Below are positions 2,283 to 54,155 of a stretch of DNA of 64,000 bases, one piece after another; positions within the stretch are counted from its first letter, which is position 1, and each line of letters opens with the position of its first letter. The translations under genes and the position numbers were made by a program. Origin of the DNA: a virus; the IMG/VR virus record IMGVR_UViG_3300045256_000094; one strand, 5' to 3'. The notes beneath the pieces were generated by a model. It was not told the origin of the DNA, did not search any database, and saw only the letters and a list, made by a program, of their open reading frames with translations.

Positions 2283-3593
2283 TCAGTCCGCCAGTTCCTC
2301 GTCCCCGGCCTCCACGTCGGTCAGGGGTTCCAGCGGCTTTTCCTCGTAGCCGTCGGGCAGTTCCCACTCGAAGCGGGCGACCATGATCTGCCGGGCCACA
2401 CGGCAGGGGTCGTACACGCCGTTCAGGATGGCGACGGCGGTAGCCCGCATCACTTCCAGAACGTCGTTCGGGATCAGGTTCTTCGTCACGGGGTCTTGCT
2501 TGCCCTTCTCGATCCACCCCTTGACCAGTTCCTTGTAGAACTGCTCGATCTGCCCCTTTGTGAGACAGGTCGCCTTCTTCGGGCTGACGCCCCGCTTCAG
2601 CCCGCCCGCCGTCAGGTGGCCCTGCCGGATGGTTCCGGCCTCCTTCACCACCCGGTCCTTCTTGGCCTTCGCCTTCTTGGCCCGCCCCTCGGCCGTCTCC
2701 TTCTTCTTGGCGAGCCGCTTGGCCGCAGCCTCGTCGCCCTGCTCCTCGGCGATGTTCACCATCGTCGCCGTCATGTCGGCCTCGTCCGACGCCTGTGCGA
2801 TCTCGTCGTCGAGCCGTTCGACCGCCTCAGCCCGCTCGGCCTTCTCTTGCTCAACGGCCCCCTCGTAAGCCGCCTGCCGGTCCTCCTTCTTGTAGGACAA
2901 CAGCTTGACGGCGACGTGACGGGTGAGTTGCCCACTCACCAACTTGGCGAAGGCGTCGGGCGGGAGTTCTTCCCGGAAGTTCCCGGTCTGGGACACCCAG
3001 GTCACGTTGGTGGACAGGAGCTTGACGATCTCCTGCTGGGTCAGGCCACGGAGGGTCAGCCGTTCGACCAGTTCGATCTCTTCCTTGACGGTCAACGACT
3101 GGTGTTCGTTGTTCTCAAGGAAGTTGATCCTCACCGCCTCTTCGTCGGTGATGTTGTACAGGACGTTGCAGGTGACGAACTGGTAGAGTTCCCGTGCGGG
3201 AACCTCGATCTTCCGCTTGCGGTCGAAGCACAGCGGGTTGTTCTTGTACAGCAGGTCGATTGACCGGAATCGCCGCTCACCGGCGATCAGTTGAACCCTG
3301 GTGACGGGGGACTCGTCGTCCGACGGGTTCTCAGTGAAGGCCCGGACGACGATGGGTTGGATCAGACCTTCCAGGCGGATGCTCTCGTAGAGAGCGTGCA
3401 TCTTCTCCTGGGTGAAGCTGTCCATGCTCCGGCAGTTGAAGAACAGAACGTCCTTCTCTCGCCCCGGCTCCGGCCGTTCCACGATCTCGATGGCTTGGAG
3501 TGGCACAAGCCGGAACTGGCCGTCCCCCTCGATTCGGATGCCCCCGAGCGGGTCATCCTTCGTCTTGCCGTTCTTTTTGGTTGCCGTGGTCAT
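2283..3593 (-). CDS. ParB-like nuclease-domain protein
   Basis: The ParB/Srx N-terminal motif IVVRAF...RVQLIAGERRFRS is present. The C-terminal region is rich in Lys/Ala/Glu. Confidence 0.8.
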   Translation of the reverse strand: MTTATKKNGKTKDDPLGGIRIEGDGQFRLVPLQAIEIVERPEPGREKDVLFFNCRSMDSFTQEKMHALYESIRLEGLIQPIVVRAFTENPSDDESPVTRVQLIAGERRFRSIDLLYKNNPLCFDRKRKIEVPARELYQFVTCNVLYNITDEEAVRINFLENNEHQSLTVKEEIELVERLTLRGLTQQEIVKLLSTNVTWVSQTGNFREELPPDAFAKLVSGQLTRHVAVKLLSYKKEDRQAAYEGAVEQEKAERAEAVERLDDEIAQASDEADMTATMVNIAEEQGDEAAAKRLAKKKETAEGRAKKAKAKKDRVVKEAGTIRQGHLTAGGLKRGVSPKKATCLTKGQIEQFYKELVKGWIEKGKQDPVTKNLIPNDVLEVMRATAVAILNGVYDPCRVARQIMVARFEWELPDGYEEKPLEPLTDVEAGDEELAD

Positions 3594-5534: not shown

Positions 5535-6070
5535 TAAATCTCCTCGGACAACTGATCGAACCAATTCTTCAACGCCACGTCCACTTCCCCTGGGTGAGAG
5601 TGCAGATAGGCCAGGGACGGGGTTTGGGCGGCGTACTCAGTCAACTTGTCCTTGTCATACTTGTTACCCACGCCCACTACCAACACTTTGCACTCCAGGC
5701 TTTCCTTCTCGTTCAGCACAACCACCTTCTTCACGCTCAGTAGGTCCGAAGGCAGGAAGCTGTCGGTGACGAGAATCAGAACCTTGTCGGTGTAGTCGTC
5801 GCCCCGAGCGGCGACGTACAAGGTTTGCTTCAGTGCAAACCCCAGGTCGAACTTGAACCCGTCCGTCTCGAAGTTGCCCAGAGCGGCCGTCTTCTCGCCC
5901 TGCGAGTACACGGCGTCAAGAAGCTGTGGGTGGTACAGGTAAAACCCGTCTTCGCTCTCCGTCTTGCAGACGAACCGGACCAGGGACTTTCGTACCTCGT
6001 CCACCACTCGCCTGCCCTCATGTTCACGGGAGGATAGGTGAAGTACGAGGCCGATGTTTTTACTTTTCAT
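5534..6070 (-). CDS. hypothetical protein (possibly vWA-like)
   Basis: 178-aa ORF; VLILVTD and VLVVGVG stretches; no confident homology. Confidence 0.45.
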   Translation of the reverse strand: MKSKNIGLVLHLSSREHEGRRVVDEVRKSLVRFVCKTESEDGFYLYHPQLLDAVYSQGEKTAALGNFETDGFKFDLGFALKQTLYVAARGDDYTDKVLILVTDSFLPSDLLSVKKVVVLNEKESLECKVLVVGVGNKYDKDKLTEYAAQTPSLAYLHSHPGEVDVALKNWFDQLSEEI

Positions 6071-20014: not shown

Positions 20015-20943
20015 TGGAATGCGTTGTCTACCACTGGTGGGCAGAGGACTACGATGCCCAGCCCGCAGAGAACCTGCGCACCCCGCTCATCCACTCCATC
20101 GCCAGCCTGCGTGCGGTTGACAAGACCATCCCGGTTTACGTCCTAGACGGCAGCAAGAAGCCGCTCAACTGGCACTACTGGTCGAGCAGCCTGCGGTTCA
20201 AGCTGATCCCGATCACCTTCAGTTACGAAGAGAAGTACGCCGACAAGCCCGGCTACAAGAACTTGTCCCGGATCGAGGACATCTGGAAGTGCGAGCTTCC
20301 CGAGGAGAAGATCATCTACTCGGACGCCGACGTGTTCTGGATCAAGAGTCCCAGGCCGACGACGTTCGACGGCCAGCGGTTCACCTTCAACAAATACAAC
20401 AGCGGTTTCTTTTACTACGACAAGACATCGCCGCTGGTCAAGGACTTCCACGAACTGTGGCACGCCTACATCATCACGGCGTTGAACGACGAGAACTTCC
20501 GAATCCTGAGCCGTCAGTACACAGACTACCGGGAGTGGTACTTCGTGCTGGACGAGACGGTGCTAACGTACATGGCGTACAAGCTGCCACGGTTCTTCGA
20601 CATCGTGGACACGAACGAACACTGCACCCTGGGCATGGCGGCTCAGCAGATGCCGTCGCCCGACAAGATCAAAATGTTCCACACGCACGGCGTCCTGGTC
20701 AAAGACGTGTTCACACACAGCGAACATGCCCGTGGACTGACGCCCCTGTTGATTAAGGAATGCTGGGACTCGCTCCAGGGACTCGGCGAAGAGAAGGTGA
20801 AGCAGTTGTACCGGCCGCAATACCTGGAGAAGTACCTTCCGTACCAGCGGTCCCTGTTCGACCCCGAGTTCGAGAAGGTACTTCGAGAGAGTAAAAACGA
20901 AAAGGGCTTGTGCCGGTTGACACAAGCCCTGCGGGTTACTTGA
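20014..20943 (+). CDS. hypothetical protein, nucleotide-sugar-transferase-like
   Basis: Starts MECVVYHWW with a TAATG overlap on the upstream stop; contains IYSDADVFWI. Confidence 0.4.
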   Translation: MECVVYHWWAEDYDAQPAENLRTPLIHSIASLRAVDKTIPVYVLDGSKKPLNWHYWSSSLRFKLIPITFSYEEKYADKPGYKNLSRIEDIWKCELPEEKIIYSDADVFWIKSPRPTTFDGQRFTFNKYNSGFFYYDKTSPLVKDFHELWHAYIITALNDENFRILSRQYTDYREWYFVLDETVLTYMAYKLPRFFDIVDTNEHCTLGMAAQQMPSPDKIKMFHTHGVLVKDVFTHSEHARGLTPLLIKECWDSLQGLGEEKVKQLYRPQYLEKYLPYQRSLFDPEFEKVLRESKNEKGLCRLTQALRVT

Positions 20944-21693
20944 GAAGGTCTAACTCGCCCTTCATGATCGCCTTGATGTTCGTCACCTTCTTGTTGGTCC
21001 GGTGATCGGTAACTCGACTCTCCATGAAGTTGTAGGTTCTGATCTTCTGCCCACGGCTGCCGTCGCCGAGCGTCTTGCGACGGAACTCGGAGTATTCCTT
21101 GTCGGCGGCTGCCTTCCGTTTGTCCTGAACACGGGCCGTCATGATCCTGATGGCGTCCCGCTTGTTGGAGTGCTGGTCCCGGCCGTTAATGAACACCGTG
21201 ATGCCAGTCTCCTTGTGCTTCACCCGCACGGCACTCTCGGTCTTGTTCTGGTGCTGACCACCAGGACCGTGCCCGCACTGAGTCGTCACTTCGTACTCGT
21301 CTTCCTTGATCGGCTCCCACACGTCCTCCTTGATCGGCAGGACGCCGACGGAGATCATGGAAGTTTGTTTACGGCCTTTGGATTCCGTCTCCGGGACACG
21401 CTGGCAGCAGTGACCGCCGCTCTCGCTCTTGAAGGCATCCCAGACCCCGTTGCCGGTGATCTTGGCGATGCAGTGCCCTTCGGACGTGTGAATCAGTTCA
21501 GACTTGAAGCCCTTCGTGTTGGCGTACTTGATGTACGCTGCGAAGAGTTCATCGACGAATATCTTGGAGTCCGCACCGCCCTCCCCGAACCGTAGTTCGA
21601 GGATGATTTCTTTGGCCTGCTCAAAGACTCCTCCACTTGTCCCCCATCTTCTTCATGGGGTCAAAGCGACCCCCTATTGTTGTGCTTACTCAT
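20936..21693 (-). CDS. class I release factor lacking domain 1 (RF1-like PxT = PET; PrfH-like architecture), with programmed +1 frameshift(s) in its leader
   Basis: The body aligns to RF1 domains 2-4: LELRFGEGGADS...IAKITGNGVWDAFKSESGGHCCQRVPETESKGRKQTS...GPGGQHQNKTESAVRV...RTYNFMESRVTDHR. The RF frame has no ATG/GTG/TTG upstream of M(21358) back to a TGA. The leader holds ATG(21691-21693)...AGGGGG-TCG-CTT-TGA-C followed by ATG AAG AAG ATG...GGAGGAGT-CTT-TGA-G. Confidence 0.7.
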
Positions 21694-21792
21694 CGTCGTC
21701 TCCTGTGTTGGAATGAACAGGGCGTGCCCCTGTTTCTACAATCATATAGTGTTCGAGGCCGCAAATCAAGGCGGCTTTCACTCAAATAAAAC

Positions 21793-22512
21793 ATGGTAGT
21801 CTGGCGGTACACCGTCGGCCCGGTCAGCGACCGTGGCCTAGACATTTTGCACGAGAGCGTTCGGCGGCTGAAGAAGCTGTATCCCGACTTCCGAATCGTC
21901 GTTTGCTACAACCAAATCTCGCCGGACCGCCTCAGCCGCCTCGACGTGGAGTTGATCCCGTCCGACAGGTCCGCCCTGTCCCGAGAGCCACGCCCAGGCT
22001 ACAGCGAACACTGGAAGTTCTACCCGGCCCGGATCGCACCGAACGATTACGAAATCGTCTGCGACAACGACATCCTCCTGCACCGCCCGCTGCCCAAGAT
22101 CGAGTACGCCGTGTCCCGGAACTTCTTCATAGGGTACGAAGCCCTCGGTCGTAACTACGGGAACTTCGACCACGTTGCCCCGAAGTGTTCCATCCGAATC
22201 AACTCCGGCCTGTACGGACTGCCGCCCCGGTACGACTTCGGCAAAGAGTTGAACTCGGTGATCGACAAGGGGGCGAAGCCGGGATGGGCACACCGATTCG
22301 ACGACCAGGGAATGTTGGCGATGGTGCTATTGAATAACAAGTCACTTATGTGCGTGAGCCAATCCGACCTGCCGATCATCGAGCCGGACGAAGACCTGTC
22401 CGTGCAAAACAACAACGTGATGTGTTGCGGATATCACTTCGTATTCGCCAACAGGGAAGAAGAACACCACGGATGGAACAGTTTCTTGCAAAGAGGGTGT
22501 AAGTTATGTTAA
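21793..22512 (+). CDS. putative glycosyltransferase, WRYTVG / CYNQ / CDNDILL family (paralog B)
   Basis: MVVWRYTVGP...VVCYNQISPDRLSRL...VCDNDILLH. Confidence 0.5.
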   Translation: MVVWRYTVGPVSDRGLDILHESVRRLKKLYPDFRIVVCYNQISPDRLSRLDVELIPSDRSALSREPRPGYSEHWKFYPARIAPNDYEIVCDNDILLHRPLPKIEYAVSRNFFIGYEALGRNYGNFDHVAPKCSIRINSGLYGLPPRYDFGKELNSVIDKGAKPGWAHRFDDQGMLAMVLLNNKSLMCVSQSDLPIIEPDEDLSVQNNNVMCCGYHFVFANREEEHHGWNSFLQRGCKLC

Positions 22513-34272: not shown

Positions 34273-35151
34273 CTACATCAATTTCTCGCCAGTCCTCCAC
34301 ACACCCTTCGCCGCTTTGTACTTCCTGTCCAAAGACTCCAACTTCGCCATATCCATGTTGGCCTGATTGCTCTTAAGCTTCCCGCCGTTGAAAAACAACT
34401 CGATCATCCGCTCACGGGGCAGGTGGTTGGCACTCTTGTCGTCCACTTTCGGTGCCCAACCGAGCCGGGCGAGGAACTGCAACATGGCGTCGGGATCGTA
34501 CCCGGCGTTCTTATAGTGAAGCATCGACGTGCTGCCCTCACTCTTGCTGAGCAGCTTGCCGCCCTGGGAGATCAATCCGACGTGGGCGAACTTCGGGATG
34601 GGTGCCCCGAGCAGGTGGAACAGCACGACCTGCTTGCTGGTGTTGGTGATGTGGTCGGTGCCCCGGAGGATGTAGTTGATCCCCATATCCATGTCGTCCA
34701 CCACGGACGACCAGTTGTAGGTCGGGGTGCCGTCGCTCTTAATCAACACCATCTCGTGCATGCGGTTGAGATCGTCGTCGGTGATCTTCACGTCACCCAC
34801 AACCTCGTCGTGCCATGTCCTCGGGACTTCCTTGAAGTCCAGGTGGCTGACGTAAAGGGTCAACGCACCGTCCCGGTCGGAAACGTTGGGCAGCAGGTCG
34901 ATGGCCTCCCGGTGACGCTTGAACCGCTCGCTCTGGCGGAACGTCCGGTCGTGGTTGAGGCCGAGCCAGTCCATGATGTCGTGGATGACCTTCACTGAGT
35001 CTTCGTTGTTACGCTTCTGGTCCGTGTCGTCAATGCGGAGGGTGAAGGTGCCGCCGCTCGCTTTAGCGGCGAGCCAGTTGAAGTACGCCGTCCGGGCCGT
35101 GCCGATGTGAAGATCGCCGGTCGGGGACGGGGCAATTCGGGTGTGAAACAT
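34273..35151 (-). CDS. glutamyl-Q tRNA(Asp) synthetase-like protein (GluRS catalytic domain without anticodon-binding domain)
   Basis: RIAPSPTGDLHIGTAR (HIGH), DGTPTYNWSSVVDDMDMGINYILRGTDHITNT and KLLSKSEG (KMSKS-like); 292 aa. Confidence 0.72.
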   Translation of the reverse strand: MFHTRIAPSPTGDLHIGTARTAYFNWLAAKASGGTFTLRIDDTDQKRNNEDSVKVIHDIMDWLGLNHDRTFRQSERFKRHREAIDLLPNVSDRDGALTLYVSHLDFKEVPRTWHDEVVGDVKITDDDLNRMHEMVLIKSDGTPTYNWSSVVDDMDMGINYILRGTDHITNTSKQVVLFHLLGAPIPKFAHVGLISQGGKLLSKSEGSTSMLHYKNAGYDPDAMLQFLARLGWAPKVDDKSANHLPRERMIELFFNGGKLKSNQANMDMAKLESLDRKYKAAKGVWRTGEKLM

Positions 35152-45011: not shown

Positions 45012-45285
45012 CCCAGCCTACACGGCCTCCACCTTACGGCTTCAGCCTCGGCCAGATGTGAGTTCCACGGTACGGTCCCAGGTATTGCTACCTGGGGTGC
45101 CGTCGTTCGGCACGCTTGTCGCACACCCTTGCGGGGTACAGTACCCTAGCTATTACGCTTTGGGATCAAGCTCGCTATCACCCTTACGGTGTTCGCAACC
45201 TTAGACTCGTCAAGATGTAATCCCTCTACCTGTACCTGATTCATCACCAAGTACAAGCATCCTTGCGGACAGCATTCTTCCCGAG

Positions 45286-45356
45286 TAGCCCCTACAGGAG
45301 TCGAACCTGTTCGACCTCTTTAGGAAAGAGGCACGCTTCCGTCACATCCAGGGGCC
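45286..45356 (-). tRNA. tRNA-Arg (anticodon CCU)
   Basis: Hand-folded 71-nt cloverleaf: acceptor GGCCCCU/AGGGGCU, anticodon arm CCUCU-UUCCUAA-AGAGG, T-arm ACAGG-UUCGACU-CCUGU. The D-stem has two G·U pairs. Confidence 0.55.
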
Positions 45357-53985: not shown

Positions 53986-54064
53986 TGCGGTTTCTCAAGA
54001 ACAACGTGGTTAGGACGAACCGGCCGTTCTCTTGGTAATAATCTCGTCCCTCTTGTAACATGAG

Positions 54065-54155
54065 TCGGGGTGTCGGGATTCGAACCCGATCCGGTGGGTT
54101 AATCGGACCCTATACCGATTATAAGTCGGCCCGTTCTGCCAGTAACTCCACCCCG
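54065..54155 (-). tRNA. class II-like tRNA (91 nt, long variable region); anticodon loop CUUAUAA, so the anticodon is possibly UAU and the identity is uncertain
   Basis: Acceptor CGGGGUG/CACCCCG (7/7 pairs), 3-bp D-stem GUU/AAC, T-arm UCGGG-UUCGAAU-CCCGA. Confidence 0.5.

Follow-up and report, generated by a model that had tools for sequence, protein, structure and literature searches.

A putative tandem +1 frameshift leader before a phage RF1-type release factor that lacks domain 1

Two shift sites and a release factor without a start codon

The 64,000-nucleotide (nt) stretch of viral DNA considered here, IMG/VR record IMGVR_UViG_3300045256_000094 (the window), encodes on its minus strand a class-I release factor (RF) of RF1 type whose reading frame does not begin in any conventional way. 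The frame is closed on its 5' side by a TGA (21655-21653) and holds no ATG, GTG or TTG until the ATG at 21358 (Met-89), which lies 3' of the codon-recognition tripeptide. Upstream stand a short open reading frame (ORF), here called ORF0, and two CTT-TGA motifs (21666-21661 and 21626-21621), and the +1 frame of each motif is open into the next element. In the order in which a ribosome would meet them, the parts of the locus are as follows; promoter and Shine-Dalgarno (SD) assignments are consensus matches only.

21741-21769, minus strand: promoter-like site 5' of the leader, TTGATT and TATGAT with a 17-nt spacer
21699-21703, minus strand: ribosome-binding site (RBS) GGAGA, 5 nt 5' of the ORF0 ATG
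21661-21693, minus strand: ORF0, 10 codons, MSKHNNRGSL and TGA (ATG 21693-21691, TGA 21663-21661)
21660-21675, minus strand: frameshift site 1, AGGGGG-TCG-CTT-TGA-C (SD-like element 21675-21670, 3-nt spacer TCG, P-site codon CUU 21666-21664, UGA 21663-21661, then C)
21624-21662, minus strand: linker in the +1 frame, DPMKKMGDKWRSL, a frame open only between the two sites
21620-21634, minus strand: frameshift site 2, GGAGG-AGT-CTT-TGA-G (SD-like element 21634-21630, 3-nt spacer AGT, CTT 21626-21624, TGA 21623-21621, then G)
20936-21622, minus strand: RF1-type release factor body, domains 2-4, 228 amino acids (aa), EQAKEIIL...LDLLK, TAA at 20938-20936
21386-21394, minus strand: PET, a PxT codon-recognition tripeptide of RF1 type, opposite PAT of E. 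coli RF1 in the alignment
20936-21358, minus strand: the sole conventional ORF available to a gene caller, 140 aa, GGQ domain only
21254-21262, minus strand: GGQ catalytic motif, from sequence and alignment
20893-20930, minus strand: intrinsic terminator directly 3' of the stop codon, a 12-bp stem with 7 GC pairs, then TTTCGTTTTT

Site 1 is identical to the shift site of E. coli prfB except for the spacer codon, and at both sites the SD-like element sits 3 nt 5' of CUU. After the second +1 shift, which resumes from GAG at 21622, the RF frame begins EQAKEIILELRFGEGG, and the complete two-shift product is 251 aa long. The initial annotation had described ORF0, both sites, both +1 frames, the RBS, PET, GGQ and the missing start codon in these terms, and a re-reading of the minus strand bears out every one of these statements. 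How often would such sites occur by chance? The pattern (AGGGGG, GGAGG or GGGAGG)+3 nt+CTTT+stop has two matches on both strands of the 64 kb, exactly these sites, against 0.08 expected from 300 second-order Markov simulations. Promoter-like sites are also in excess, with three in 20800-21900 against 0.1 expected; with a promoter-like site, an RBS and a terminator after the stop codon, the RF unit looks like a complete gene.

Other ways of joining ORF0 to the RF frame fare poorly. A lone -1 or +2 event at site 1 cannot work, since it would meet the TGA at 21655-21653 in the RF frame; a non-canonical start 3' of site 2 is unlikely, the sole TTG there (21624-21622) being out of frame; and reading TGA as a sense codon does not connect ORF0 with the RF frame, in a window that is densely coding under code 11 and uses all three stops. 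On the opposite strand, a 197-aa ORF (21002-21595, plus strand) runs antisense to the RF gene; as a shadow ORF, it almost certainly just mirrors the GC-rich coding strand.

What kind of release factor is it? The Pfam matches are the RF-1 (GGQ) domain and, of PCRF, the C-terminal half alone (profile positions 98-194 of 194). Among the NCBIfam hidden Markov models (HMMs), a comparison that the initial annotation had proposed, RF1 ranks first with 244 bits (NF001859, cutoff 400) and 234 bits (TIGR00019, cutoff 423), ahead of RF2 (154 bits), PrfH (TIGR03072; 69.3 bits, cutoff 166.65) and ArfB (20 bits, cutoff 100). The RF1 matches begin at profile position ~101-110, and the score stays below the equivalog cutoff for full-length RF1 (prfA); the N-terminal domain 1 is absent. 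A search against PDB gives 40% identity with E. coli RF1 residues 109-340, and an AlphaFold model from the family alignment (predicted local distance difference test, 89) superposes on ribosome-bound RF1 with a template-modelling score of 0.86 when normalised to the query and 0.57 when normalised to full-length RF1. By the HMMs and the structure model, the protein is a class-I release factor derived from RF1 that comprises domains 2-4 and lacks domain 1. Half of the earlier label, "RF1/PrfH-like", is thus upheld, namely RF1 type and the loss of domain 1; the PrfH half falls, with a score below the cutoff, the PxT kept and no RtcB found in the ORFs scanned (below). ArfB was likewise rejected, both by its score and by the presence of the full PCRF codon-recognition domain.

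Domain 1 is the part of a release factor that contacts RF3 and the L11 stalk. An E. coli RF1 engineered to lack it retains stop-codon recognition and peptide release, whereas RF3 does not recycle it, as summarised in passages of PMC1586002 that cite Mora et al. (2003); the phage factor is therefore plausibly active and RF3-independent. By the same summary the E. coli protein is a laboratory construct, whereas the phage truncation is natural, widespread and combined with a basic leader peptide of 10-35 aa. The decoding loop departs from the canonical one: GRKQTS (window 21368-21373, minus strand) replaces the GRIHTS of RF1, the clade having GR(K/R)(Q/H)TS, and a 6-residue loop is deleted relative to E. 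coli RF1. The His of R-(I/R)-H-T-S, to our knowledge universally conserved in RF1 and RF2, is Gln in the window and in most of the clade. The PxT and the conserved Gln of RF1 are kept, and the RF2-type SPF is absent. On sequence grounds, the loop changes may affect codon specificity.

The leader in related phage genes

A protein search returns over 1,200 relatives; the lengths of the best 120 fall between 172 and 295 aa, and many of these lie on contigs of 100-660 kb. DNA for a sample of ~40 loci (labelled L with a number) came from IMG/VR, the contigs of the three closest proteins, GenBank LR756511.1 and metagenome contig L126. Leaders were traced backwards from the conserved GxGGxDSK motif, and the redundant copies L026, L040 and L271 were left out. 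Pattern scans of metagenome and genome contigs gave almost only full-length cellular prfA with at most 44% identity, which served as outgroup only. The leader is present at 30 non-redundant loci including the window, 10 with two sites and 20 with one; in each of the 30, a site about -40 nt from the GxGG motif leads into the RF frame, ORF0 has its own RBS and ATG, and every shift lands in the next required frame. Since a CTT-stop in the productive frame within ~60 nt before domain 2 would arise by chance at about 1-2% per locus, this recurrence is not accidental. The loci divide by leader type as follows:

Two sites, TGA/TGA: window, L258, L262
Two sites, GTT-TGA then CTT-TGA: L259
Two sites, TAA/TGA: L001, L293
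Two sites, TAG/TGA: L021
Two sites, TAG/TAG: L004, L022
Two sites, TAA/TAG: L024
One site, TGA: L025, L029, L030, L031, L034, L036, L039, L042, L260, L274, L276, L277, L281, L285
One site, GTT-TGA: L038
One site, TAG: L027, L032, L035, L126, L275
In-frame TGA a few codons after the ATG, no shift site: L002, L033, L267
Ordinary start, same clade: L023, L028, L037, L288, L290, L292

The 40 shift sites thus use 26 TGA, 11 TAG and 3 TAA stops, and four genes (L001, L021, L024, L293) pair unlike stops within one leader. C follows the stop in ~60% of sites across the family (the window has UGA-C at site 1 and UGA-G at site 2); a C in that position is the weak-termination context known from prfB. Two-site loci share an AAGGAG-type RBS, in the position that GGAGA occupies in the window, an ATG and a similar basic leader peptide (MSKH..RG.L, MGKKHKK.. 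or MKEKKKNRGCL; for instance MSKHNRGSL in L258, MSKHNRRLL in L022 and MSKHKNRGWL in L024). The family occurs on contigs of 100-600 kb, among them LR756511.1 (L293), a published, complete, unannotated "uncultured phage" genome of 595,163 bp, in which the two-site leader reads TGT-CTT-TAA-C and then CGT-CTT-TGA-C (~2920-3010).

Variants at the edge of the clade show where the cassette can give way. Distant short RFs (L043-L096) start 9-11 codons before the GxGGxDSK motif and have no cassette; because these conventionally starting relatives lack the shift motif entirely, the leader is a maintained feature of the clade rather than a product of decay. The tandem prfB-style sites of the initial annotation thus survive the comparison with homologs that it had proposed. 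GTT-TGA replaces CTT-TGA in L259 (~5835-5845), an 89% identical relative, and in L038 (~2985-2995), which suggests that the P-site codon is not strictly CUU. The in-frame TGA of L002 (AGT TGA AGA, ~2990-3030), L033 (CAG TGA AGA, ~2975-3020) and L267 (AGT TGA CTG, ~1490-1524) implies readthrough or TGA recoding; a crude ORF-coverage test on 6-kb loci did not separate the two. In L003 (1188-3000; IMGVR_UViG_3300045256_000381), whose RF 3' part is 97% identical to that of the window, the gene is interrupted just before "...HSNKRDAIR" by an ORF whose motifs are those of a group-II-intron-type reverse transcriptase (YADD) and of HNH; the flanking sequence examined does not reach the 5' exon.

Gene callers have left a trace of the cassette in the protein databases. 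N-termini of the form MSLAP, MSLTP or VSLAL, and xFD, xFE or xFS before EIIL, are the two cassettes read in the RF frame. Among the best 120 of the more than 1,200 proteins, the called start of 33 lies 3' of the GxGGxDSK motif and 32 show this footprint; another 8 have a long N-terminus but no footprint, and 47 start at most 11 residues from the motif and are uninformative. Such genes are therefore systematically mis-called in databases, with truncated or false "MSLAP..." N-termini (P0001, 208 aa, and P0002, 181 aa, are examples).

At short evolutionary distance, both sites persist in the nearest relatives, L258 (94% protein identity) and L259 (89%), while the bases around them vary: the first spacer changes from TCG to TCA or TTG, the second SD-like element from GGAGG to GGAAG, ORF0 codons differ, and CTT becomes GTT at site 1 of L259. 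The promoter region cannot be aligned among the three, and the domain 2 coding sequence 5' of Met-89 is intact, with 63-94% identity to relatives. Equivalents of site 1 are found in L001, L004, L021, L022, L024, L262 and L293. The leader types, like the stop identities, lie scattered over a neighbour-joining tree of the clade, a pattern that indicates repeated switching of site number (one or two) and of stop codon with the mechanism retained. The leader stop shows no covariation with the decoding loop (among hundreds of tests the lowest uncorrected p was 0.007, with none in the loop) and no link to GC content. The P-site codons of the two sites are 34-49 nt apart in nine of the ten two-site loci, about one ribosome footprint. 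Ribosome collisions stimulate +1 shifting at such motifs (PMC6815119), and one may speculate that the spacing matters in this way.

Site 1 of the window also lies inside a small hairpin, GGGGUC-GCUUU-GACCCC (21657-21673, minus strand), in which the SD-like G-run pairs with the CCCC after the stop; folding of the leader RNA gives z = -2.4, with this hairpin over site 1. As a shift stimulator the hairpin is not convincing. A similar pairing looks possible in L258, L259 and L001.

What the leader would sense

Given this anatomy, its conservation and the RF1 domains 2-4 of the product, we consider it very probable that a prfB-type +1 frameshift leader, used twice in series, expresses a phage RF1-derived factor without domain 1. 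That the shifts occur, and how efficiently, we infer from the sequence and from the analogy with prfB. Ribosomes would start at the ORF0 ATG (21693) and arrive at site 1 with CUU in the P site and UGA in the A site, the upstream AGGGGG pairing with 16S rRNA. When termination by RF2 is slow, peptidyl-tRNA-Leu would re-pair from CUU to UUU and reading would resume at GAC; thirteen codons on, at GGAGG-AGT-CUU-UGA-G, a second shift would bring the ribosome into the RF frame and yield the full protein. Output would then follow roughly the square of the chance of escaping UGA termination: fast termination would give little factor, and limiting termination capacity much more. As the product of two escape probabilities, two serial sites would provide (i) a steeper response and (ii) a lower basal level; unlike stops (TAA/TGA, TAG/TGA, TAA/TAG) would make output depend jointly on both host factors. 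The best reading of the leader is that it ties synthesis of the phage RF1-like factor to slow termination.

Which factor, then, would read the leader stops? Because both are UGA, the window leader would sense host RF2, twice in series. The initial annotation had called it RF2-sensitive, a reasonable inference for the window, while relatives also use UAG and UAA. PET predicts reading of UAA and UAG, and both leader stops of the window are UGA, so that the loop is not obviously autoregulatory; the window leader probably mediates cross-regulation, with either RF2 or the general termination load as its input. True autoregulation could operate in those relatives whose sites carry UAG. One reading of the stop usage is that UGA is the weakest stop and hence the best sensor.

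Several points weigh against this explanation. A UGA-gated RF1-type factor closes no autoregulatory loop as prfB does, and two serial sites would cost yield. The SD-like stimulator is not universal among one-site relatives: L025, L029, L034, L035 and L039 have no recognisable element. The non-canonical loop (GRKQTS with its 6-residue deletion) leaves the specificity of the factor uncertain. Finally, in-frame ATGs in the linker of the window and L258 could allow some initiation that needs the second shift only.

Could the leader nevertheless be autoregulatory everywhere, with a phage factor that reads all three stops, or at least UGA too? The mixture of leader stops, with unlike pairs inside one gene, differs from prfB; stop identity covaries with neither the decoding loop nor GC content; and the loop itself is unorthodox, with His replaced by Gln in RxHTS and a loop deleted. 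The factor nonetheless keeps the PxT and the conserved RF1 Gln and has no RF2-type SPF, and the stop mixture is equally explained by sensing of host factors with UGA preferred as the weakest stop. We know of no natural omnipotent bacterial class-I RF, and regard this possibility as unlikely. If it were true, any leader would close a genuine autoregulatory loop regardless of the stop it carries, and the paired sites would place a "universal", RF3-independent terminator under steep, switch-like control; with this terminator, huge phages would take over termination in the infected cell.

Somewhat less likely still is that only site 2 is used in the window, with initiation at a linker ATG (21656 or 21647), perhaps by re-initiation after ORF0, in which case site 1 and ORF0 would form an upstream leader ORF. 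The sequence TGACCCCATG does put a linker-frame ATG 5 nt after the ORF0 stop, both ATGs are kept in L258, and 20 relatives manage with a single site. The initial annotation had offered the internal ATG AAG AAG ATG as an alternative start, and these ATGs exist and may contribute; they are not conserved, however, being confined to the window and L258. L259, L001, L004, L021, L022, L024, L262 and L293 have no linker ATG, and all have a perfect site 1. There is no SD at a useful distance from the linker ATG (AGGGGG lies 13 nt upstream), and this route gives no purpose to the conserved SD-like element, 3 nt, CTT and stop at site 1. Because linker ATGs are absent from eight of the ten two-site loci, the conserved route is ORF0, shift, linker, shift and RF.

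A pseudogene or an assembly error, in which a decaying RF1 copy expresses at most the 140-aa GGQ fragment, is very improbable. A standard ORF finder does see only 20936-21358, and database relatives are called as truncated proteins. Set against this are the precise motif in the right frames with its own RBS and ATG in ~30 independent contigs from different samples, at a chance level of ~1-2% per locus; the intact domain 2 coding sequence 5' of Met-89; and the conservation of both sites at 89-94% identity while neighbouring bases vary. Equally improbable is a role of PrfH type, the rescue of damaged ribosomes together with an RNA ligase: domain 1 is absent, as in PrfH, but the match to the PrfH model (69 bits) falls short of its cutoff (167) where the RF1 models give 234-244, the canonical PxT is kept, and no RtcB appears in the window ORFs scanned or among the called genes of L258-L260.

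Precedents and genomic setting

Textbooks present programmed +1 frameshifting at CUU-stop as an example of translational autoregulation, and bacterial prfB is regarded as the only gene that uses it. The window leader shares with prfB (AGGGGG-UAU-CUU-UGA-C in E. coli) a short ORF0, CUU followed by an in-frame stop, an SD-like element 3 nt upstream, C after the stop (at site 1) and a +1 frame that encodes a class-I release factor, whose expression would by analogy be coupled to termination efficiency. The phage gene differs in being RF1-type, not RF2, and phage-encoded; its product lacks domain 1 and the site lies just before domain 2, whereas the prfB site lies inside domain 1; and the phage family uses two serial sites in 10 loci. 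The stops differ as well: phage sites use TGA, TAG or TAA, whereas in prfB the stop is TGA in 98.6% of cases and never TAG, which has been taken as a signature of autoregulation (PMC12421855). The same 2025 survey of more than 12,000 bacterial genomes states that programmed frameshifting has been shown for prfB and not for prfA, and it found no TAG in the motif (PMC12421855). All CUU-stop +1 sites in RECODE are prfB, as noted for PRFect (PMC10885494), and a reviewer of the PrfH paper remarked that the mechanism is absent from the RF1 family.

The nearest conceptual precedent comes from giant viruses. Mimivirus and Megavirus encode an eRF1-like factor, a virus-encoded class-I RF that needs two successive recoding events at stops, interpreted as termination-sensing regulation (PMC3521657). 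That factor is eukaryotic-type, belongs to giant viruses of amoebae and needs one frameshift and one readthrough, whereas here a bacterial-type RF1 in phages would need two +1 shifts of the prfB kind; the two systems are analogous, not homologous. We know of no frameshift leader for prfH. PrfH/RFH is likewise a bacterial-type class-I RF paralog without domain 1 (PMC1586002, PMC6514570), but its recognition motifs are divergent and peculiar to it, and RtcB always accompanies it; the phage factor, in contrast, matches RF1 best, retains PxT and lacks an RtcB partner among the ORFs scanned. RF1 and RF2 encoded by huge and stop-codon-recoded phages have been listed or tied to a change of code (PMC7162821; bioRxiv 10.1101/2021.08.26.457843); the release-factor passages of these two papers mention neither a missing domain 1 nor a frameshift leader. 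In contrast to the recoded phages, the window uses the standard code and all three stops.

The initial annotation thought the arrangement undescribed, and this holds in the full-text literature searched, which contains no report of frameshifting in phage RF genes; most subscription journals were not covered, and such absence is not proof. The novelty would lie in the gene family and the type of host that use the prfB mechanism, in its tandem arrangement and in the relaxed stop identity. As far as we have found, no RF1-type gene had been known to carry the motif. Natural TAG, TAA and TGA versions of a single cassette, natural tandem +1 sites and in-frame-stop variants all occur within one huge-phage gene clade. 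By analogy with prfB, the cassette would sense termination capacity in a compact, natural form, which makes it interesting to recoding and synthetic biology. A further question that it raises is how huge phages manipulate termination with an RF unable to interact with RF3.

The gene lies inside a very large sugar-modification cluster (~10800-32200), partly syntenic in L259 and L260. Its neighbours are glycosyltransferases, a DegT aminotransferase, a carbamoyltransferase, UDP-galactopyranose mutase and epimerases; the cluster also contains methyltransferases and two epimerases/dehydratases. The RNA-repair genes that the initial annotation placed next to the RF gene are not there: neither the 10 ORFs around it and 20 further large window ORFs nor the called genes of L258-L260 yielded an RtcB domain, and the nearest RNA-related gene, a CCA-adding enzyme, is 21 kb away. 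The translation-related genes outside the cluster are:

34273-35151, minus strand: GluRS/GlnRS catalytic-domain protein, 292 aa
42449-43696, minus strand: CCA-adding tRNA nucleotidyltransferase
45285-45356, minus strand: tRNA-Arg(CCT)
54064-54155, minus strand: tRNA-Ile(TAT), 92 nt (ARAGORN)

The window has 57% GC, and blastn of 3 kb shows no DNA similarity to deposited phages. Besides the two tRNAs and the GluRS/GlnRS-like domain it encodes ParB and many ORFans, a gene content that fits a huge phage. At 92 nt the tRNA-Ile(TAT) is unusually long and may contain an intron or an insertion, or be a poor call.

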